DNA of 13,247 nucleotides from a virus (IMGVR_UViG_3300023038_000160); one strand, 5' to 3'. Counted from the stretch's first letter, positions 4,510-13,165 are shown. Numbers and translations: made by a program. The notes: generated from the sequence alone by a model not told the origin.

Positions 4510-4538
4510 TTGACAAATGTTTCTTTATATGTAATAAT
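4510..4538 (+). promoter_or_regulatory. Sigma70-type promoter for the regulator/replication operon
   Basis: TTGACA (4510-4515), 17-bp spacer, AATAAT (4533-4538) with extended -10 TG at 4530-4531; a ~100-nt leader containing a short hairpin and T-run precedes the first gene. Confidence 0.5.
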
Positions 4539-4648: not shown

Positions 4649-4837
4649 ATGAAATGGTTCACATCTGAGCACGTCGTTCAGGCATTTAAAAAAGGTGAGT
4701 TATCTCGCCACCAAGTAGTAATGAATCGTAATATGGCAAGGAGTCGAGGTTATCCAGAGCGAGCTGCTTGCTTCAATGAAGCACTCAAGATTATTGATGA
4801 ACTAAGAAAAAATGAAAAAGAATCTGAAACAGAGTAA
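4649..4837 (+). CDS. Small putative DNA-binding regulator (62 aa)
   Basis: Strong RBS AAGGAG 7 nt upstream; first gene after the promoter; basic helical segment LSRHQVVMNRNMARSRG. Family not recognised. Confidence 0.5.
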   Translation: MKWFTSEHVVQAFKKGELSRHQVVMNRNMARSRGYPERAACFNEALKIIDELRKNEKESETE

Positions 4838-4856
4838 AGAAGAGAAGGAGAAAACT

Positions 4857-5027
4857 ATGAGCGAAACTACAGAAAAGAAAAGACAACCACGCACTTGCTT
4901 TCATATTCCTGATGAAGTATTTCAGGTGTTATTTAAAGAAGCCAGAAGTAGACGTATCACTGTCACAGATTACATTCTTGATATGTTGAAAAGAGAGGCT
5001 GAAACACTCTCAAATAAAAGCAAGTGA
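4857..5027 (+). CDS. Ribbon-helix-helix (CopG/Arc-like) DNA-binding protein (56 aa)
   Basis: Start moved from the track's 4812 to the ATG at 4857, which has AAGGAG 7 nt upstream and avoids overlap with the previous gene; RTCFHIPDEVFQVLFKEARSRRITVTDYILDMLK fits a beta-strand followed by two helices. Confidence 0.55.
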   Translation: MSETTEKKRQPRTCFHIPDEVFQVLFKEARSRRITVTDYILDMLKREAETLSNKSK

Positions 5028-5080
5028 TTTTTATCACCATAGTAGCGCCGTAGAGCGTGATTACATCAAGGAGATTTTTA

Positions 5081-5749
5081 ATGATTAAACATACAAAACC
5101 TTTTTTAGGAATAGATTATGACTTACTAGCAATCACTTCCCTGGTGATTAACGGCAAAACAAAAGAAGTAAAACTACACCATAAGATCATTTATTCTTAT
5201 TTGTTAAGTTTATCTGGCACATACCAAAAGGTAACACCATCTTTGAAAGGTATTGGTGAGCGGTTAGGAGTAGGTACAGATCAGACGGTACGCCGTCATA
5301 TCAAAGATCTTGTTTCTTTTGGATGGTTGAAGATTGAGGAAAGGGCAGGTAGCACAAATGCTTATATTGTCCTTCCTTATGAACAAGAAGCCAAAACACA
5401 ACAAGAAGCTACCGTTAAAGCTGTTCCTGAACAGCTTCCCCCTACAGAAGATAATAAAGAGTCTTCTTTTGATGTTCTTGATGATTGGGATGCGCCTTTG
5501 CCGTGGGAGACGGAAGAAACACCTGTTTCATCAAGTGAAAAGGTAGCTAATGATAATGAGGAGGATGTGTTAGAGAATTTTGCCTCTCTTATCTGCCAGC
5601 AGAAAAACACCAGAACAGGAGGGGCATCCTTTATAGAATTTGCAACATCGTTAGCCTATAAGCACAGGTTAAAGCTACCAAATGGTATTGAGGCATATTT
5701 TTCTAAGAATTACCCAAATGTGTATGATGACTTTGATATTCCATTTTAA
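5081..5749 (+). CDS. Winged-helix protein with acidic C-terminal region; candidate iteron-binding replication initiator
   Basis: ATG at 5081 with AAGGAG 8 nt upstream (the track's 5057 start is a GTG without SD); wHTH-like segment SLKGIGERLGVGTDQTVRRHIKDLVSFGWLKIEE; D/E-rich region in the C-terminal half; located downstream of the iteron cluster. The Rep role is inferred from context. Confidence 0.45.
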   Translation: MIKHTKPFLGIDYDLLAITSLVINGKTKEVKLHHKIIYSYLLSLSGTYQKVTPSLKGIGERLGVGTDQTVRRHIKDLVSFGWLKIEERAGSTNAYIVLPYEQEAKTQQEATVKAVPEQLPPTEDNKESSFDVLDDWDAPLPWETEETPVSSSEKVANDNEEDVLENFASLICQQKNTRTGGASFIEFATSLAYKHRLKLPNGIEAYFSKNYPNVYDDFDIPF

Positions 5750-5760
5750 TAAGGAGGGTT

Positions 5761-6039
5761 ATGATTCAATATTTAGTAAAAAATCAAGTAGACAGAATTC
5801 AGTGTAATGACACAGGAAAACGCATCTACGAAACACTTGCTTACCTCTATAAAGGAAAGCCAACACCGCTAAAATATAGCGATGTGTTACACCGAGCAGG
5901 GTGCTCTGAAGATGGTTTAAAATTCTGGCTTAGACAGCTATCAAATTTCGGTGTTATAGAGATTAAAGAATTATCTTTCTCTACATTCAATCTCAAAAGA
6001 CTAGATAAAGAAATAGACTTCATCTATTCCACTCTCTAA
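5761..6039 (+). CDS. Small winged-helix-like protein (92 aa), function unknown
   Basis: Perfect RBS AAGGAGGG directly upstream; segment KYSDVLHRAGCSEDGLKFWLRQLSNFGVIEIKE resembles a wHTH recognition unit. Confidence 0.5.
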   Translation: MIQYLVKNQVDRIQCNDTGKRIYETLAYLYKGKPTPLKYSDVLHRAGCSEDGLKFWLRQLSNFGVIEIKELSFSTFNLKRLDKEIDFIYSTL

Positions 6040-6168
6040 AATCTCTCTATGTAATTAAAATATAAAAGGAAAACATTATTATGATAGTAGCTATGTATTG
6101 GTTATTGTTCTTTCTCACGTTAGAAACATATTTCGGGGTGTTTTCCTTTAAAAGAAAAGGAAAGGTAA

Positions 6169-6576
6169 ATGGCAAAAAGAAAAAACAACGTTGTTAAGAA
6201 AATAGGGGATTCAGCTTCTCTTCTAAGTAAACCTAAATCTATTCTAAGACGCAAAGACTTTAAAGAGCTAGTAACGCTCACCAAGCATAATAGCGCCCCT
6301 GGCGAATGGAAAACAGAGATCATAGAACATTCTCCCTCTGTGCCTTGTGGAGATGAATTTAACGCATTACAAGAAATCTTATCTTCAACACCTGGTGTAT
6401 TCTGGAAACCTAGAAAAAGAAAAGAGTATATTGTTGATAGCTCTGATTTACGCAAATACCAGATTTTAGGATTTGAAGACTATAACCACTACGTCGGTTA
6501 TCTCGCCACCAATGGCCTAAATAATTTAGTTCCTGAATTCCAAATTTTAGATAATGCTGATTATGGAGACTTTTAA
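6169..6576 (+). CDS. Hypothetical protein (135 aa), basic N-terminus
   Basis: RBS AAAGGAAAGG 4-5 nt before ATG; operon context; no family recognised. Confidence 0.5.
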   Translation: MAKRKNNVVKKIGDSASLLSKPKSILRRKDFKELVTLTKHNSAPGEWKTEIIEHSPSVPCGDEFNALQEILSSTPGVFWKPRKRKEYIVDSSDLRKYQILGFEDYNHYVGYLATNGLNNLVPEFQILDNADYGDF

Positions 6577-6577
6577 T

Positions 6578-6916
6578 ATGAACAAAAACACGTATGACAC
6601 AATTTATTCACTAATTAATTATTATGAGGATGATTACCTCCTGCCTTTAAACCGCGCTGAACTTGATGCATATAAAGAAAACACTCCAGCGGCACTAAAT
6701 GAGGCGTTTAAACACTGGGATTTAGCTGTGAATGCCTTTGAGCACCTCTTTAAGCGTGTAGAGATGCTCTGTAAGCGCGAAAACGCATATCTGACAGCGG
6801 ATCAGATATGGGAGTTATCAAACTGGATAGAAGATATTGAATCTGATGTTCGCTATGTAGGAGACGGACTTGTTGAACTAGCTCAACGCTTAGGCGCTAC
6901 TATCACAGAAGAATAA
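6578..6916 (+). CDS. Acidic helical hypothetical protein (112 aa from the ATG at 6578)
   Basis: GGAG 9 nt upstream of the ATG at 6578; the upstream ATGs at 6554 and 6563 lack an SD and overlap the previous gene. No family recognised. Confidence 0.45.
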   Translation: MNKNTYDTIYSLINYYEDDYLLPLNRAELDAYKENTPAALNEAFKHWDLAVNAFEHLFKRVEMLCKRENAYLTADQIWELSNWIEDIESDVRYVGDGLVELAQRLGATITEE

Positions 6917-6946
6917 AAAAAAGCAACAAAAAAGTTGTAAAATATC

Positions 6947-6975
6947 TTGACATTTCATATATTGTATGTTAGTAT
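6947..6975 (+). promoter_or_regulatory. Sigma70-type promoter with extended -10, driving a noncoding unit
   Basis: TTGACA (6947-6952), 17-bp spacer, TAGTAT (6970-6975), TG at 6967-6968. Confidence 0.5.
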
Positions 6976-6979
6976 AATT

Positions 6980-7187
6980 ATATGGGGTGATTATTTTTCC
7001 TTTATTGGTTCGATATTAAAAATTCTTCTTGTCGTTAAAGGGGAGTAAAATCTCCGCTCCCCGCTTCTCCTCCTTAAGTAAATACTGTGTCATTATTACC
7101 TCTTTTTTCCTTTGTTATGCATACATCTTGGAGTGTGCATAACATAGGGTAATTACAAAGGCGGCTTTAAATGCTGCCTTTTATTTT
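6980..7187 (+). ncRNA. Candidate ~200-nt structured noncoding RNA or regulatory leader between promoter and terminator
   Basis: No ORF beyond M-G-stop; alternative hairpins GGGGAG...CTCCCC (7040-7062); perfect 9-bp inverted repeat TGTTATGCA (7113-7121) / TGCATAACA (7136-7144); terminated by the hairpin at 7160-7178 plus T-tract. Confidence 0.3.
7157..7187 (+). terminator. Rho-independent terminator
   Basis: Stem GGCGGC (7160-7165) / GCTGCC (7173-7178) with one G-U pair, 7-nt loop, then TTTTATTTT (7179-7187). Confidence 0.55.
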
Positions 7188-7249
7188 GCCCGTTATGCAA
7201 CTTAAAAGTTGTATTTCTTACTTTAAACAAGGTAACAAGGTTTATATAA

Positions 7250-7462
7250 ATGTTGTTCTTAAATGATAAAGAGCAAATCATCAAGTATAAAGATGAAATG
7301 CTGCGAATTAATCCACAAATTACCGAAATGGTAGCTAAATACGCTGGGTGTTCTGTCGAAGAAGTAGAACGATGTGTTGAAAAATATTTTTCTCCTTCTT
7401 CTCCGTCTACACCTTCCCTTAATGAATTAATCAAATTAAAAGCTAAGGAGATTACTAAATGA
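7250..7462 (+). CDS. Hypothetical protein (70 aa), first gene of the head-like module
   Basis: ORF with weak SD; stop overlaps the next start (ATGA at 7459-7462), implying translational coupling; a 6-bp palindrome CAACTT-AA-AAGTTG lies just upstream. Confidence 0.4.
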   Translation: MLFLNDKEQIIKYKDEMLRINPQITEMVAKYAGCSVEEVERCVEKYFSPSSPSTPSLNELIKLKAKEITK

Positions 7463-7821
7463 TTATTGATTTAGACACTCTATTTCCAGTTCGAAAGACT
7501 TTCACAGATATTGTAAGTTATTGTACTGATCCGTTTGCCTCTGTAGAAAACAAGGTTTTTGCTTCTCTTCCTGCTGATGTTGAGTGCGGAGACTTGATCA
7601 CCAGCACGGGCGCTAAATATGAATCAGGAGATGATATCTATGTTGTTATGAGTGAATTTGTAACGGCTGGAGAAAACAAGCCTGTAGATGTGCTACGTGC
7701 TAATGCTGGTCTTGTCTGCATCAAAGCTGATGCGCTGAATGCTGTAAGTGAAGCAGCAAAAACAGCATTAATTAAAAAAGGCTTCCAGCTTGAAGGGTTC
7801 CATTCTGTTTTCACTTCTTAA
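7459..7821 (+). CDS. Hypothetical protein (120 aa) immediately upstream of the capsid gene; possible decoration or scaffold-type head protein
   Basis: AAGGAG 8 nt upstream; position is analogous to lambda D relative to E, but no convincing similarity to lambda gpD is seen by eye. Confidence 0.5.
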   Translation: MIIDLDTLFPVRKTFTDIVSYCTDPFASVENKVFASLPADVECGDLITSTGAKYESGDDIYVVMSEFVTAGENKPVDVLRANAGLVCIKADALNAVSEAAKTALIKKGFQLEGFHSVFTS

Positions 7822-7839: not shown

Positions 7840-8868
7840 ATGATTCTAGGTAATGATTACGTTGATTTAGCTCCTCTGTTCTCTGCGCATAGCACTAGAA
7901 ATTATCTACTGTCTACCCTTGACTTCACTGATCCGGTGGGCGTTAGTTCTCATAAAGTAGCTGTTTCCCAGCTTGTCGAAAGCAACGAATCTCTGTTCAA
8001 CAAAGAAACCTCTCGTTTCTCTTCTGAGCATAACGTGACTAAGCGTGAACAAGGTAAAGAATGGCTGATCGAAATCCCGTATTTTCTTCGTGAAGATGTG
8101 ATTCGTCCTTCTGATGTTCAAGGCAAACGTAAACCTGGCACTGATTTTCAGGAAACACTCACTGATATTTATGCTGAGTATGTTGCTAAACATCACGTAG
8201 CGTATCAGCGTACAAAAGAGAGCGTATTGGCTGCATCTCTGTTTAGTGGTCGCACCTACACGCCTAAAACTGATGATGTTCTTATCGAGTGGGGCAAGCT
8301 GTTTAACGTATCAGCTATGAAAGCCACTGTGAACGCTTCCAGCACTGACACCACGAAGATTTTTAAAGAATTTGATCAGATTGCTACTGACATTATCGAG
8401 AAAGCACAAAGCCAGGCGGCTGCTGTAGAGCGTATTGTTGTTTTCTGTAAGCCGGAAGCCTTCTCTGCAATTCGATTCTCTGCGGGTATGGCAAACGCAT
8501 TCCAGTATGTAAGCCCACTGGAAGAGGGAAATGTTGTGTATCAGCGTCGTGACCTGCTACCAGGGGTGACAGCGTTCACTATTCCAGGAACTAACATTGA
8601 TGTTATTAAACTGGTAGATCCGCTACACCTTGCACATATGACTTCTGATGCGGTTGCGGTTCCGAAGTTTGCTAAAGGCTCTAATGTATATCAGAACATC
8701 TACGGGGCTGCTTCCAGCACCTTTGAACTGATTAATTCCGCTCCTGCTGAGGTGTACAGCTATAGCTATGAATCTTCTCGTGGTGATGCTGTTAACGTTG
8801 TTACAGAGAATAGCCAGATGGTTGTAAACCACGGCGTTGGCTTCTCCGTTCAAATCACTGTAAAATAA
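7840..8868 (+). CDS. Putative major capsid protein, lambda gpE-like (342 aa)
   Basis: RBS AAGGA; length matches lambda E (341 aa); by-eye matches to the recalled lambda E sequence: RIVVFCKPEAFSAIRF vs IIVFDPKGWALFRSF, LAASLFSGRTYT vs SAVLKGKYT, FELINSAP vs FTMIQSAP, and a C-terminal FSVQ vs FVSVQ; followed by a strong terminator. Confidence 0.6.
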   Translation: MILGNDYVDLAPLFSAHSTRNYLLSTLDFTDPVGVSSHKVAVSQLVESNESLFNKETSRFSSEHNVTKREQGKEWLIEIPYFLREDVIRPSDVQGKRKPGTDFQETLTDIYAEYVAKHHVAYQRTKESVLAASLFSGRTYTPKTDDVLIEWGKLFNVSAMKATVNASSTDTTKIFKEFDQIATDIIEKAQSQAAAVERIVVFCKPEAFSAIRFSAGMANAFQYVSPLEEGNVVYQRRDLLPGVTAFTIPGTNIDVIKLVDPLHLAHMTSDAVAVPKFAKGSNVYQNIYGAASSTFELINSAPAEVYSYSYESSRGDAVNVVTENSQMVVNHGVGFSVQITVK

Positions 8869-8955: not shown

Positions 8956-9159
8956 ATGGAAGTGATTCTGAAATCAAAAAATGGTGTACACGTACATTTA
9001 GATGCTAATGATTCTAGAGGCTTGTTAAATCTGAAATATCTATGTTCTCTCCTAGATGTTCCATATGAAGGAGTAAAAGCCCGTATGTTCAGACTAAACG
9101 AGAGTATTGATCAGGCTCTACACCATTTCTTAAGTAAAGAAGGTGGTAAAAATGATTAA
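8956..9159 (+). CDS. Hypothetical protein (67 aa)
   Basis: RBS GAGAGGTGA before ATG; no family recognised. Confidence 0.45.
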   Translation: MEVILKSKNGVHVHLDANDSRGLLNLKYLCSLLDVPYEGVKARMFRLNESIDQALHHFLSKEGGKND

Positions 9160-9174
9160 TAAGGGGGATTTTAA

Positions 9175-11001
9175 ATGTTAGAAATTAACACTTCTAAAAT
9201 TAAGAATACAGTAACATTTAGTGTAGATAAAGACAGCTTAAAAAAAACGAAAGACTCTATTACAGGCTTAAAGGAATTTGCAGAAAACATCAAGCCAGCT
9301 AAATTAAGGTTTGATAGTGTCACTAAAGGCTATAAGAAAGCACAAAGCGAAGTAGACAAGATTGCTCAACAGAAAGCTAAAACAGAAAAACAGAATCAAA
9401 GAGCACAAGCTGCCGCAGCAAGAGCACAGGCAAGGCAACAGGCACAAATAGCAGCACGTAAAGAGAAAGCAGAATTAAAACTTCTCGATGTGTCAAGCTC
9501 TATCAGTGCAATGCACCGTCTCTCTGTAGCGGAACAATACAAAGCTATTGCACAGGCTAGAGAGATAGCAAAACAATATGAGCAAGGCGCTATCTCGCTT
9601 GCACGTATGAATAGCCAGATGAAACGCTTACAACAACAACAACGTAAGATTAATGGCAACAGAAAAGCTCAATTTGCCCCCGTTAAGGGAGGATCAGGGA
9701 ATTCCGCCACTATGGGCGCTCTGTTATTTGGAGGCGCTACGGCTGCTGCTGGCGTGATGGCTGTTAGTAAAACCTCTGAATTTATGGCTAATAGCTTTGC
9801 GAATGCTGAAACACAAGGAGAATTAATCCAACGTGCAAGGCTTGGCGGTGTAGACGTTAACCAGATGTACAACATTACAGAATGGGCGTATAGAAACGGC
9901 GTTGACTCTATGATGGGTGATCAAGGGGCTAGAAAATACCTGGATCAGATGAAAGATGTTAGGGAACGTGCCGCAAAATCCTACAGTGAAGCTGAATTGG
10001 TGAAAGACAAGAAAGGAAAATCTGAATGGAAAGGCGGTGATAACGGTATTAATGAACTTCTAAACATCGGTGTTATTAACAAAAGCGACCTTAAAAAATT
10101 TGCTGATAATCCGGCTGGATTAATTTCTAAGGCTGTTAATGGAATGATGAAAAAAGGGTTTTCAGACTCCCAAATTGGACAACGTTTAGAAGACCTGGGC
10201 GATGATTTGATGCTTACATCAAAATATTGGCAACGTTCCGTTAAAGATGTACAAGAAAGTATTAATCAGCAAAAAGCCTCTGGAAAATGGCTAACAGAAA
10301 CACAGCAAGACTCTATTGTTAAATTCAGAGAACTAAACAGACAGCTTTCACAGCTTTCTGATGCAAGACAAGTAGCATTTGTAGACGGCTTTATGAAATC
10401 TCTCGATCCAAAAGTAACGGAAGAGTTTATGAAAAACCTTTCTAATCTCACTCCGTATTTTACGAAGCTTGGAGAAGCTACAGGAAGTCTCTTTGAAGCC
10501 ATTATGAAGATTGTAAACTGGTTTAATCGTAATGATGATAAGACAGATGCTATTCAGAAAAATATGGGAGATGCACCGCCATTAAGCAATGAAGGAATGA
10601 AACAGAATCTTTCTAACCTCGTTCCTGACCAATATAAAGGCGCTGGCACTGCAACAACTACACCTGATAATACTCATTCCATCTTTAACACAATTAAGGG
10701 ATGGCTTTTCGATGATAATTCTTCTGTGTCAGATGTAAAAATGTCAGTCAGCGAAGCACCGATAACCAATCTCAAACAGGGTGCTTTAAATAATCTTGCA
10801 ATGACAACTCCGGCTTATAATTTATCTCCTGTGTTTAATCTGAATCCTACATTTGAAGTGGTAACAGAGGTTCCTCTTACTATTAATTCTGACACATCAA
10901 GATTAAGCGATTATGTGGATTTTACAGCGAGAGCAAGTCGGGATAGCTTCTTGAAATCATTAACATTAACCAGCTTATCAGGACAATCTAACGGCGGGTA
11001 A
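9175..11001 (+). CDS. Large coiled-coil protein with Gly/Ala-rich hydrophobic segment (608 aa); candidate scaffold, tape-measure-like or ejection-type virion protein
   Basis: RBS AAGGGGGA; N-terminal ~170 aa rich in Q/A/K/R (AQQKAKTEKQNQRAQAAAARAQARQQAQIAARKEKAELK), then GGSGNSATMGALLFGGATAAAGVMAV (~9697-9775), then an S/T/N-rich C-terminal part. Function inferred from composition only. Confidence 0.55.
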   Translation: MLEINTSKIKNTVTFSVDKDSLKKTKDSITGLKEFAENIKPAKLRFDSVTKGYKKAQSEVDKIAQQKAKTEKQNQRAQAAAARAQARQQAQIAARKEKAELKLLDVSSSISAMHRLSVAEQYKAIAQAREIAKQYEQGAISLARMNSQMKRLQQQQRKINGNRKAQFAPVKGGSGNSATMGALLFGGATAAAGVMAVSKTSEFMANSFANAETQGELIQRARLGGVDVNQMYNITEWAYRNGVDSMMGDQGARKYLDQMKDVRERAAKSYSEAELVKDKKGKSEWKGGDNGINELLNIGVINKSDLKKFADNPAGLISKAVNGMMKKGFSDSQIGQRLEDLGDDLMLTSKYWQRSVKDVQESINQQKASGKWLTETQQDSIVKFRELNRQLSQLSDARQVAFVDGFMKSLDPKVTEEFMKNLSNLTPYFTKLGEATGSLFEAIMKIVNWFNRNDDKTDAIQKNMGDAPPLSNEGMKQNLSNLVPDQYKGAGTATTTPDNTHSIFNTIKGWLFDDNSSVSDVKMSVSEAPITNLKQGALNNLAMTTPAYNLSPVFNLNPTFEVVTEVPLTINSDTSRLSDYVDFTARASRDSFLKSLTLTSLSGQSNGG

Positions 11002-11035: not shown

Positions 11036-11749
11036 ATGGCGACCGCCGGGATTTTAACCATACGTGCAGCAAATACTCCAGAACAACACGTTCAGGCTGT
11101 TTACAAAGCAGAACAAGATATAAACTCTACAAAAAACGAAAATAGCAAAGCTAATAAAACAAAAGGAGAAAATGGGTTTGCTATTGTTACCAGTGGCTTG
11201 GCATCTTCTGGCAATGACGTTTATGAAAATTATATGGCACTGGCCTTTGACAGTGTTGACGATGTGAACGTGAGACGTTCGGCAGATGTTACAAGCTACC
11301 CCGTAGAAAATGGTGCTACTGTGTCTGATCACGTTCAAATTAAAAACAATAAGTTTTCTCTTAAAGGAAGGATCACTGAAACACCGATTAAAAGCGATCC
11401 TGGCTTGTTAAAGAGTGCAGGGGTGAACGGGAACAGAAGATCATTAGCTATCGACTACCTGAATCAGATTATGGACAGTAGACAGCCTTTTCTTCTTGTT
11501 ACAGAAAATAAAACTTTTGAGAACGTTGTTTTAACAGGAATCGAATACACAGAAGAGGCAAGCGAATCCCTGGTATTTGATCTTAGCTTTGAGCAAATAA
11601 GATTAGTTTCTTATGGCACTGTGAACACTGTAGCTATCAAAACACAGCCATCTAAGAACATCGGGGCTAATATGAAAAAACGTGTTAACACTGAAAAATC
11701 AAGTAGTGAAGGTGAAGACACTATTACTCCTGCCTTTAAACAGGAATAG
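11036..11749 (+). CDS. Hypothetical protein (237 aa), possible virion-associated protein
   Basis: RBS AAGGAAAA; same operon as the 608-aa gene; no family recognised. Confidence 0.5.
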   Translation: MATAGILTIRAANTPEQHVQAVYKAEQDINSTKNENSKANKTKGENGFAIVTSGLASSGNDVYENYMALAFDSVDDVNVRRSADVTSYPVENGATVSDHVQIKNNKFSLKGRITETPIKSDPGLLKSAGVNGNRRSLAIDYLNQIMDSRQPFLLVTENKTFENVVLTGIEYTEEASESLVFDLSFEQIRLVSYGTVNTVAIKTQPSKNIGANMKKRVNTEKSSSEGEDTITPAFKQE

Positions 11750-11830: not shown

Positions 11831-13165
11831 CTATGGCGTTGTTTTACGCCTTAAATTTGATTTTTTATTGATTGATAAGCCTTTCTCTATTTCAGGGTAG
11901 CGTAGAAGCTCAATATATTTTTTAAGCTCTACTGGAGAAGCTGCATTCTTGCTATATGTGCGGAATGTCTCTGTATTGCCGCGTGTATGGCCCAGGAGAA
12001 GGGCGATCCTGTCTTCTGGAATTTGATTTCGATCAAGAAGCTGTGCTACTCCGTGTCTCAGAGAATGAAACACCTTCCTTTCTGTTCCCTTTTCCCCTAA
12101 AGCCTTTCGTTTAGCTCTTGTAAATCTCTGCGTGTGCCACGTAGAGCGTTTACCATCAGCACGCTCTGTAATGCTGGCGTGATAGAACAAAAAGCCATTA
12201 TGAGGCTTTTCACGCAGCGACAACACCAACGGAGTGATAAGGCTATGTACAGGCACAACACGTGCCGCAGCTTTCGTTTTTCCCTGTGTGATTTCAAAAC
12301 ACAGCACACCTTCGATCTCTTTCACATCGTCTATTGTGAGACTTGCTATCTCATTGATCCGCATACCTGTATATAAACCGATAAGACACAAAGCTATCAT
12401 TTCTTTGTTTTCTGCTGAATTACCGGAAAATACTTGCAACACCTGCAATAGCTCTTTGTTAGAAAATGCCTCGTAGCTCTCTCTACTTTGTGCCACATCA
12501 AGCCTATGCCCTCGCCAGGGGGAGAGCGCCCTTTCTGGCGCATCGTGGTAACGTGATGAAGCTAACTCCCATAGCTGGGCCATTGGGCTGATATAATTTG
12601 CAATTGATTGTTGTGAAAGGGTTTTTTGCATGTGTTCAATCCAGCCTGTAACAGTGGTGCGGCTTACATCTTGCAATGCAATATCAGGCTTTTTACGGTA
12701 GGAGAGAAACATCTCTACCGCTTTTCTTGCCTTAGCTAAAGTGGCTGGCTTCTTCTTCGTGCTGTTAATAGTCAGGTAGATTTCAAGAATTTTAAGCAAT
12801 GATGGACACGAAGACGCTGTATCTTGCATTCTGGTAGCTGTTTTGGCGTATTTAGCCTTACTGCGTAACAGTTCCAGCGTGTTCTCTATTGTGCTGTTTA
12901 CAGGAGCGACACTCTCGCGTAAGCAATGGTATTCATCTGCAATCTGATCACGCTTTCTACGTGCAACACGAAGATTACTTGTGTGCAGACTCCTGACAAA
13001 CGTCCTTTTTCCTTCAAAAAAGGGCTGCATATACACAGGCAGCGTGATCCTTAAATAGTAGTTACCGTAAGAATCACAGATTATGTATTGATTGGGCTTG
13101 TATCTCATAAACTCCCCGGCTAAAGTGTCGGAGCGTTTGTAATGTGAAAATTGATTGTAACGCAT
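11831..13165 (-). CDS. Tyrosine recombinase / phage-type integrase (444 aa) with N-terminal arm-binding-like domain
   Basis: Catalytic signature visible in the translation: TGMRINEI (Arg), HSLRHG (His-x-x-Arg), LLGHTRGNTETFRTYS (His and catalytic Tyr). An alternative start at 13108 (MRYKPNQ..., GGGGAG 3 nt upstream) is possible. Codon composition looks more GC-rich than the rest of the island. Confidence 0.85.
   Translation of the reverse strand: MRYNQFSHYKRSDTLAGEFMRYKPNQYIICDSYGNYYLRITLPVYMQPFFEGKRTFVRSLHTSNLRVARRKRDQIADEYHCLRESVAPVNSTIENTLELLRSKAKYAKTATRMQDTASSCPSLLKILEIYLTINSTKKKPATLAKARKAVEMFLSYRKKPDIALQDVSRTTVTGWIEHMQKTLSQQSIANYISPMAQLWELASSRYHDAPERALSPWRGHRLDVAQSRESYEAFSNKELLQVLQVFSGNSAENKEMIALCLIGLYTGMRINEIASLTIDDVKEIEGVLCFEITQGKTKAAARVVPVHSLITPLVLSLREKPHNGFLFYHASITERADGKRSTWHTQRFTRAKRKALGEKGTERKVFHSLRHGVAQLLDRNQIPEDRIALLLGHTRGNTETFRTYSKNAASPVELKKYIELLRYPEIEKGLSINKKSNLRRKTTP

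Follow-up and report, generated by a model that had tools for sequence, protein, structure and literature searches.

A conserved gene pair in putative satellites of phi92-like phages, and a short module that one of its proteins has in common with small proteins of candidate helper phages

The island and its gene pair

The window, by which we mean the whole stretch of DNA analysed (13,247 nucleotides, IMGVR_UViG_3300023038_000160), is a low-GC island of 33-46% GC. The two genes considered here, ORF135 and ORF112, lie near its centre. The features of the window are listed below, with the grounds for each in brackets.

4510..4538, + strand: P1, near-consensus sigma-70 promoter, TTGACA-17-AATAAT with TG (11/12 consensus matches)
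4812-5027: ribbon-helix-helix (RHH) protein (ORF calling and family scan)
5057-5749: HTH/Rep-like initiator (ORF calling and family scan)
5761-6039: p92, a 92-aa protein (ORF calling)
6081..6197, + strand: hydrophobic mini-ORF of 38 codons, MIVAMYWLLFFLTLETYFGVFSFKRKGKVNGKKKKQRC (fills the gap 5′ of ORF135)
6169-6576, + strand: ORF135, 135 aa, signature protein of the island family (preceded by AAGGAAAGG, a good RBS)
6169..6288, + strand: ORF135 residues 1-40, Lys/Arg-rich tail predicted to be disordered (charge, pLDDT, alignments)
6448..6558, + strand: 'module X' (LRKYQILGFEDYNHYVGYLATNGLNN...), ORF135 residues ~94-130 (PHROG, hhalign, BLASTP, reciprocal HMM)
6565..6580, + strand: coupling junction, with GGAG RBS at 6565-6568, ORF135 TAA at 6574-6576 and ORF112 ATG at 6578 (sequence reading)
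6578-6916, + strand: ORF112, acidic protein of 112 aa predicted to form a three-helix bundle (ATG at 6578)
6917-7249: non-coding stretch from ORF112 to p70
6947..6975, + strand: P2, strong near-consensus promoter 31 nt past the ORF112 stop (promoter scan)
7157..7181, + strand: intrinsic terminator-like hairpin closing the leader 5′ of p70 (terminator scan)
7250-7821: p70 and p120 (ORF calling)
7840-8868: major capsid protein (MCP), lambda-E-type, Phage_cap_E (family scan)
8956-9159: p67 (ORF calling)
9175-11001: tape measure protein (phrog_16051 match)
11036-11749: Dit-like protein (Dit_like match)
11831-13165, - strand: tyrosine integrase (ORF calling and family scan)

A locus near-identical to the window (L001) adjoins tRNA-Thr and proA. 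No terminase, portal or protease was found among the window ORFs scanned against Pfam, NCBIfam and PHROG, and no recognisable capsid scaffold was found in Pfam or PHROG, despite the presence of the island's own major capsid protein. Barth, Dunham & Seed (2023) predicted 224 satellites of phi92-like virulent myoviruses, using as signature an initiator of the RepA_N type with an N-domain homologous to the T5orf172 nuclease DNA-binding domain of Inny, Muut or Mt1B1_P17 (PMC10055350). The predicted satellites are ~13 kb long and tRNA-adjacent, carry integrase, capsid, decoration, tape-measure and baseplate/Dit genes, and are without terminase, portal and protease (PMC10055350). The window has an initiator of this kind: residues 5-147 of its Rep match a protein of phage Muut at 88.8% identity (E 8e-78), and the Rep N-domain is 33% identical to a protein of Mt1B1_P17 (Phapecoctavirus). 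Its gene content also corresponds, with integrase, Phage_cap_E, tape measure and Dit_like genes and no terminase, portal or protease. Judged by these sequence matches, the island is a member of the putative family of phi92-like-phage satellites predicted by Barth et al. Muut itself is a Justusliebigvirus. Gene labels in that study were restricted to strong predictions, and ORF135 and ORF112 were left unlabelled (PMC10055350). The 'F5' satellites of E. coli, which block their helper SUSP1 in experiments (bioRxiv 10.64898/2026.10.15.759431), were considered as possible members of the same family and rejected, since they lie between tonB and yciI and have no capsid gene; their recombinase resembles the P2 DNA invertase.

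The early operon from P1 reads p62-RHH-Rep-p92-(mini-ORF)-ORF135-ORF112. No terminator-like site was found on the + strand from P1 to 6916; the early operon therefore comprises six to seven genes, of which the pair are the last. Its position between the replication and head genes of a satellite-like island is as given in a preliminary description of this DNA. The mini-ORF overlaps the start of ORF135 in a different frame, and 10 of 14 island copies, although diverged in DNA, keep a peptide of 35-41 aa that has this pattern and RBS.

ORF135 consists of three parts: a Lys/Arg-rich disordered N-terminal tail, a family-specific alpha/beta core and a C-terminal aromatic module of ~36 residues. The basic N-terminus noted in the preliminary description is evident, residues 1-40 having a net charge of +9 and a pI of 10.8, while the remainder of the protein is acidic (pI 4.6). 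Family alignments show a conserved start to the tail, M-x-[KR]-K-x-[RK]-N-x-[ILV]-x-[KR]-[IL], and its charge lies between +4 and +10 across all 16 homologues. The AF2 model of ORF135 is of moderate quality (mean pLDDT 66.6), with an alpha/beta core at residues ~45-120 (pLDDT 70-90) and disorder predicted at residues 1-26 (pLDDT <50) and 122-135. The core carries an invariant K-P-R basic loop.

ORF112 is acidic and helical, as had been proposed, with a pI of 4.42 and a net charge of -12; across its family the pI ranges from 4.1 to 4.5 and the net charge from -9 to -17. AF2 predicts an antiparallel three-helix bundle (pLDDT 93.5, pTM 0.83) with helices at residues 5-34, 37-66 and 74-111. The structure prediction and structure-based search recommended in the preliminary description thus gave a confident but generic bundle for ORF112, and for ORF135 a model with no Foldseek match in PDB or BFVD. 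In PDB, Foldseek matched ORF112 to generic three-helix bundles only (best E 0.17), with neither Ocr nor ArdA among the 50 matches listed. Against PDB sequences the ORF112 family profile matched designed helical bundles only, and the ORF135 family profile gave no match. Both proteins are labelled hypothetical by RefSeq/PGAP. The earlier failure to recognise a family for either was confirmed by searches of Pfam, NCBIfam and PADLOC, which gave no match, and of PHROG, which gave only weak matches, on 25-36 residues of ORF135. No Pfam match recurred among 34 ORF135 relatives at E values up to 10, and no PHROG match recurred among 12 ORF112 relatives.

The ORF112 ATG lies 9 nt past the GGAG and 1 nt past the ORF135 stop. 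This start and its RBS are identical in seven E. coli alleles, and an upstream ATG at 6554 is dispensable. Throughout the family the two genes are separated by 1 nt or have overlapping stop and start codons, and by this arrangement ORF135 and ORF112 are translationally coupled. An optional gene encoding a helical protein of 67-90 aa lies between them in 9 of 17 island copies; it was considered as a possible paralogue of ORF112 and rejected (hhalign 8%). A natural in-frame fusion of this middle gene to ORF112 was seen in a single case, and may be a simple deletion.

Conservation and distribution of the pair

At 35% GC, simple arithmetic gives a chance expectation in 13 kb of ~0.09 stop-free frames of at least 135 codons and 0.5 of at least 112 codons. 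With 0.5 chance frames expected, length is insufficient to establish ORF112, and conservation decides. Over seven E. coli alleles dN/dS was 0.07 for ORF135 and 0.17 for ORF112, and every indel among these alleles was a multiple of three. Homologues in other genera, at 15-54% identity, have the same length, order and charge pattern. Both genes are under purifying selection, and the two reading frames first picked out from the sequence are borne out as genes by their conservation, dN/dS and in-frame indels.

A word-indexed search returned 387 homologues of ORF135, the E. coli forms being 86-99% identical and full-length forms from Klebsiella, Enterobacter and Raoultella 50-56% identical. The corresponding search with ORF112 returned 17 matches, apparently from E. 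coli only; the Klebsiella and Enterobacter islands have an ORF of 112 aa at the ORF112 position, with 24-36% identity. A search of 401 Enterobacteriaceae species genomes yielded 10 further genomes with the island. HMMs made from the family alignments (A3/A5 for ORF135, A4 for ORF112) detected a homologue of ORF135 in 17/17 island copies and of ORF112 in 16/17. The island hosts are E. coli, Klebsiella, Enterobacter and other enterobacteria, and the order of the pair is constant among them. The pair is always last in the early/replication operon and is followed by a strong promoter that is itself conserved, a leader with a terminator, and then the capsid and tail genes. It is retained when the Rep module is exchanged, both for a DUF6945 type (L033/L034) and for a helicase type (L003/L019/L035). 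When the window was compared with the Klebsiella and Enterobacter islands, ORF135 was the best or joint-best conserved protein (53-54% identity) whereas the MCP was only ~20% identical; in islands with an E. coli-type capsid the relation was reversed, with 63-72% identity for the MCP and 34-44% for ORF135. By this comparison the pair assorts independently of the capsid module.

An exhaustive profile search of 1.84 billion protein representatives gave an ORF135 family of 47 proteins. All of these are at most 135 aa long except one of 1354 aa with five short repeat matches, which was taken as spurious, and no credible fusion of ORF135 to another domain was found among the 47. Those distant relatives of ORF135 that could be placed lie within the same kind of island. 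The pair is present in 307 of 5426 complete E. coli genomes at a DNA identity of at least 90%, always on the chromosome. A wider stretch of 2.9 kb has matches in 570 genomes, and island DNA is matched in roughly 6-10% of complete E. coli genomes. No tblastn match to ORF135 or ORF112 was obtained in 50,697 phage records, and ORF135 was matched in two of 72,556 records of a plasmid collection, one of them a chromosome-sized record of 4.9 Mb. These comparisons show the pair to be fixed, syntenic core genes of the putative satellite family rather than swappable cargo. The accessory or cargo status implied by the preliminary description is not upheld, given the near-universal presence of both genes, the purifying selection on them and the lack of any match to defence models.

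Some candidates were set aside in the course of this work. P0150-P0173, short proteins that are related to the C-terminus of ORF135 and look standalone, are not independent genes, being truncated fragments with foreign N-termini. An array of the word GCATTACACAGG was dropped as a target of ORF135: the word is restricted to E. coli-type islands, and therefore does not track the conserved ORF135. No family-wide candidate site emerged from the 11-mers shared across 13 islands.

A module in common with small phage proteins

The best matches of ORF135 among 38,880 PHROG families were phrog_5488 (E 0.015) and phrog_15807 (E 0.044), both to residues 95-119, and there were no PHROG matches beyond these two. 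Six of eight ORF135-family members tested matched phrog_5488, with a best E of 6.9e-4. The two families correspond to small proteins of large virulent phages, phrog_5488 to rV5 gp104 (E 1.5e-42) and phrog_15807 to Muut gp202/phi92 gp076, a protein of 82 aa (E 2.7e-57). Alignment of family profiles with hhalign extended the relationship, giving 96.5% and E 8.3e-10 over 27 columns for rV5 gp104, and 93.7% and E 1.9e-7 over 32 columns for the gp202 family. By BLASTP, a Klebsiella ORF135 had 16 of 36 residues identical to rV5 gp104 (E 3e-8). Searches in both directions agreed. When 2365 six-frame segments of Muut were searched with the ORF135 HMM, using unfiltered hmmsearch, gp202 was the top match (E 0.005; next E 3.9), and when 3145 segments of 11 satellite loci were searched with the gp202 HMM, the top five were all ORF135 homologues. 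A profile search with a first-look filter let no candidate through in Muut or Mt1B1_P17, and the signal emerged only from unfiltered HMMER and hhalign. These comparisons show the C-terminal ~36 residues of ORF135 to be homologous to a module of rV5 gp104 and phi92 gp076/Muut gp202. The homology of ORF135 to small proteins of candidate helpers is new here.

The consensus of the module is K-W-x-x-L-G-F-x(4)-[HE]-Y-x-G-[WYF]-L-x-x-N-G-L, with an acidic D-x-D-x-[VL]-[YF] stretch after it, and the aromatic K-W-x-x-L-G-F...G-W-L..N-G-L pattern is present in ORF135. Similarity does not extend over the full length of the phage proteins of ~76-82 aa. Since only 24-36 residues align, ORF135 shares the module but is not itself a member of phrog_5488 or phrog_15807. 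The module is the sole part common to rV5 gp104 and phi92 gp076/Muut gp202. Its place varies, being at the N-terminus of gp104 but at the C-terminus of both gp076 and ORF135, and it therefore behaves as an independent unit. ORF135 thus has in common with rV5 gp104 and with phi92 gp076/Muut gp202 an aromatic module of ~27-36 residues and an acidic stretch, and with phi92 gp076 also a basic stretch immediately N-terminal of the module, whereas the rest of these proteins is unrelated. The profile of the gp202-type phage family gave no match in PDB. This family has a precomputed match to PF26220 (DUF8047), as has, faintly, one ORF135 relative.

The genes also differ in their surroundings. That for ORF135 lies in the early operon of a satellite, whereas those for gp104 and gp076 lie beside ribonucleotide reductase genes, flanked by the thymidylate synthase gene and nrdA in both Vequintavirinae and Stephanstirmvirinae; the stop of rV5 gp104 overlaps the start of nrdA. 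The gp202-type protein is present in 136 phage records of ~130-155 kb, which include Klebsiella phages and so parallel the hosts of the satellites. A module as short as this (27-36 residues) could, going by its sequence, serve to bind nucleic acid rather than to dock onto a protein.

Possible functions of the pair

The position of the two genes fits a late-gene switch as well as it fits an interaction with the helper, and such a switch is the main rival to the reading developed below. In this explanation ORF135 and/or ORF112 would let RNA polymerase initiated at P2, which looks constitutive, pass the leader terminator into the capsid and tail operon. The late switch of lambdoid phages comprises gene Q, promoter pR′, the 6S leader and terminator tR′, and the island has the same order of last early gene(s), strong promoter, terminated leader and structural genes, although the likeness is of position only. 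The pair closes the early operon, with P2 beginning just past the ORF112 stop. A promoter scoring at least 10/12 was found 3′ of ORF112 in 11 of 12 islands, L023 falling below the cut-off; it begins 13-31 nt past the ORF112 stop in 10 islands and at +93 in L002. A leader of 333-992 nt separates ORF112 from p70 in 12/12 islands, and in the window an intrinsic terminator lies 5′ of p70. P2 is near consensus, which makes control by termination plausible, and ORF135 has a conserved basic N-terminal tail. That tail would also recall the N protein of lambda, which binds the boxB RNA hairpin through an N-terminal arginine-rich arm; the tail of ORF135 is mostly lysine-rich, and leader type does not co-vary with tail type. 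More generally, the type of promoter spacer or leader 5′ region did not co-vary with the type of ORF135 or ORF112 among 12 islands, and L003 and L019, like L023 and L024, agree in ORF135 type yet differ in spacer type. The Pfam searches of 34 ORF135-family members included the Q, N, AlpA, Mor and Ogr/Delta models and gave no consistent match. The Q families have no sequence similarity to either protein in Pfam, ORF135 has no fold match, and neither a Q-binding element nor a pause site was recognised. The helper proteins that share the module are encoded in a nucleotide-metabolism cluster rather than 5′ of a late promoter, and the regulator of the island, unlike that of lambdoid phages, could equally be encoded by the helper. 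The support for a switch is positional, and we regard it as rather unlikely, if clearly worth considering.

A part in morphogenesis or packaging is improbable. ORF112 would then be a scaffold or size factor for the satellite MCP, and ORF135 a small-terminase-like or DNA-end-recognition protein. The island does encode an MCP without recognisable scaffold, protease, portal or terminase, and capsid scaffolds are typically acidic and helical, as ORF112 is. Against this, the genes belong to the early operon, a promoter and a terminator separate them from the head genes, the pair assorts independently of the capsid module, and matches to terminase or scaffold families were absent from Pfam and PHROG. 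The proteins for helper interference or redirection in other satellites (SaPI Ppi/CpmAB, P4 Sid/Psu/Delta and PLE TcaP/GpiP) are likewise small, specific to a satellite family with no relatives beyond it, and encoded between replication and morphogenesis genes. They have no homology to the pair, and most of them serve accessory functions restricted to particular lineages; ORF135, in contrast, is a universal protein of its island family. The preliminary description had also suggested an anti-defence role, for which nothing was found beyond the acidity of ORF112, and we consider a place for the pair among defence or anti-defence cargo, with ORF112 for instance a DNA-mimic anti-restriction protein, to be very unlikely. 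Because ORF112 is acidic (pI 4.1-4.5 and net charge -9 to -17 in its family), a DNA-mimic role retains this small probability, and the rapid divergence of ORF112 between genera (15-34% identity) would suit it. Its fixed position, near-universal presence and purifying selection all speak against cargo, as do the lack of PADLOC and Pfam matches, the generic bundles found by Foldseek (E at least 0.17) and the near-absence from phage and plasmid records noted above. Neither Pfam nor, among the 50 matches listed, Foldseek gave a sequence or fold match of ORF112 to Ocr or ArdA. Least credible of all, to the point of being scarcely tenable, is a toxin-antitoxin or abortive-infection pair made up of a basic toxin and an acidic antitoxin. 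Two small coupled genes with products of opposite charge would be expected of such a system; however, neither the known domains nor the free-standing distribution of type II systems was found for these genes. The pair is instead confined to a single position in one island family, toxin and antitoxin families went unmatched in Pfam, NCBIfam and PADLOC, and an optional third gene lies between the two in 9/17 copies. Disrupted fragments of ORF135 beside foreign junction sequences also fit poorly with an addictive module.

The reading that best accommodates the sequence evidence, which we put forward tentatively and as somewhat less than probable, is that ORF135 is a helper-mimicking docking adaptor and ORF112 its acidic partner. 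Module X would be the docking unit, with which ORF135 would occupy whatever the small protein of the helper binds. Docking would either tie the satellite to an early function of the helper or divert that function, most likely at the stage of replication or nucleotide supply and timed with expression of the satellite Rep. The basic tail of ORF135 would serve to bind nucleic acid. ORF112, which evolves faster and whose synthesis is tied to that of ORF135, would act as an acidic partner or modulator, for example by masking the basic tail. We infer that the two proteins form a physical complex from the coupling of their genes, together with the single fusion of the middle gene to ORF112. The preliminary description had listed the pair as candidate factors for interference with the helper, and this part of it survives in altered form: the homology of the ORF135 module to a protein of the helper lineage fits mimicry or docking, while the accessory and anti-defence parts of the proposal are not supported. 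The docking and late-switch readings are not strictly exclusive. In a more specific version, which we consider unlikely, ORF135 would be the founder of a class of satellite 'plug' proteins, in which a copy of a helper docking module hijacks or jams the helper's replication or nucleotide-supply complex, with ORF112 as a dedicated acidic partner.

Exchanges of domains between satellite and helper are known from PLE and ICP1 of Vibrio cholerae, in CapR and in RepA/Odn (PMC10055350). PLE CapR resembles ORF135 in being a satellite protein built around a domain shared with the helper, and in both cases a chromosomal satellite is set against a virulent myovirus in an arms race; the island in the window also has a Rep N-domain in common with a helper nuclease, as in the RepA/Odn case. 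CapR and ORF135 have no sequence relationship, and the shared domain of CapR is a known DNA-binding domain with the helper capsid promoter as its demonstrated target, whereas the module of ORF135 is a predicted docking unit.

As a universal signature gene, ORF135 provides a simple marker for finding satellites of this kind, and it is the most concrete molecular handle on the engagement between these satellites and their helpers. Phages of the phi92, phAPEC8 and possibly rV5 types, the predicted helpers, are in wide use as candidates for therapy and biocontrol. Since the module is shared, the satellite and phage proteins are predicted to bind the same partner. If the docking reading is true, it would provide a second case of domain sharing between satellite and helper in the same island, besides the Rep/Odn exchange, and a first clue to what the conserved orphan gene beside the ribonucleotide reductase genes does in large virulent coliphages of two subfamilies. 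Were the 'plug' version also true, it would give that gene its first function, and the hijacking step would be new among satellites.

The intervals flanking ORF135 and ORF112

The 129-nt 'gap' 5′ of ORF135 contains a mini-ORF, whose coding sequence overlaps the ORF135 start in the window, and the region directly 3′ of ORF112 carries a strong promoter followed by a structured leader:

6081-6197, + strand: mini-ORF of 38 codons
6947-7187: strong promoter, then a leader containing hairpin structures and a terminator

The predicted product of the mini-ORF, MIVAMYWLLFFLTLETYFGVFSFKRKGKVNGKKKKQRC, is hydrophobic and has a basic tail. A peptide of the same pattern, preceded by the same ribosome-binding site (GGGAAAC-TTTT-ATG), was found in 10 of 14 island copies despite divergence of the DNA. 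RefSeq annotates no gene for it in L001 and L033, the two E. coli loci annotated across the site; a 40-aa gene is annotated there in the Klebsiella locus L002. The product may be a small membrane protein, acting for example on lysis timing. At the other end of the gene pair, the first transcribed bases of the leader form a word conserved in many islands, ...ATCAC(G)TT(T)CTC(T)CC.

In 9 of 17 island copies, though not in the window, the ORF135 and ORF112 homologues are separated by an optional helical gene of 67-90 aa that carries a conserved A-A-P-F motif. Examples, among others, are:

L002, 8409-8633: optional middle gene
L021, 482-703: optional middle gene
L023, 12566-12769: optional middle gene

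In a single genome (locus L020), a clean deletion of ~107 nt has fused the optional gene in frame to the ORF112 homologue.

Counterparts in rV5 and Muut

The coliphages rV5 and Muut each encode a protein with the ~36-residue aromatic module found at the ORF135 C-terminus:

NC_011041.1, 81704-81934: rV5 gp104 gene
NC_052657.1, 30363-30611: Muut gp202 gene

The two proteins belong to separate PHROGs and have only this module in common, at opposite protein ends. Their genes occupy the same slot, in the order thymidylate synthase, an ORF of ~140-150 aa, the module gene and nrdA. Muut also has a counterpart of the N-domain of the replication initiator Rep (window 5057-5500; NC_052657.1 81246-81656), with 88.8% protein identity. 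This counterpart is part of gp094, a 332-aa protein that is the Odn-like nuclease of Barth et al. (PMC10055350).

Variant and disrupted islands

One contig (L021, G343:C92, 1-20000) carries a tandem pair of different islands of the window's family, and both have an ORF135/ORF112 pair, capsid or tail genes and an integrase of their own. In an E. coli island (L033, NZ_CM128603.1, 4687-6616), Rep and the 92-aa protein p92 are replaced by a DUF6945 protein and an HTH protein, and the ORF135/ORF112 pair follows directly.

Many database 'proteins' matching the ORF135 C-terminus alone were found to be truncated genes with unrelated N-terminal residues; truncation cases are P0150-P0155, P0161, P0162 and P0173, and locus L013. 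These matches point to frequent disruption of ORF135 in decaying islands, by insertion sequences or rearrangements.
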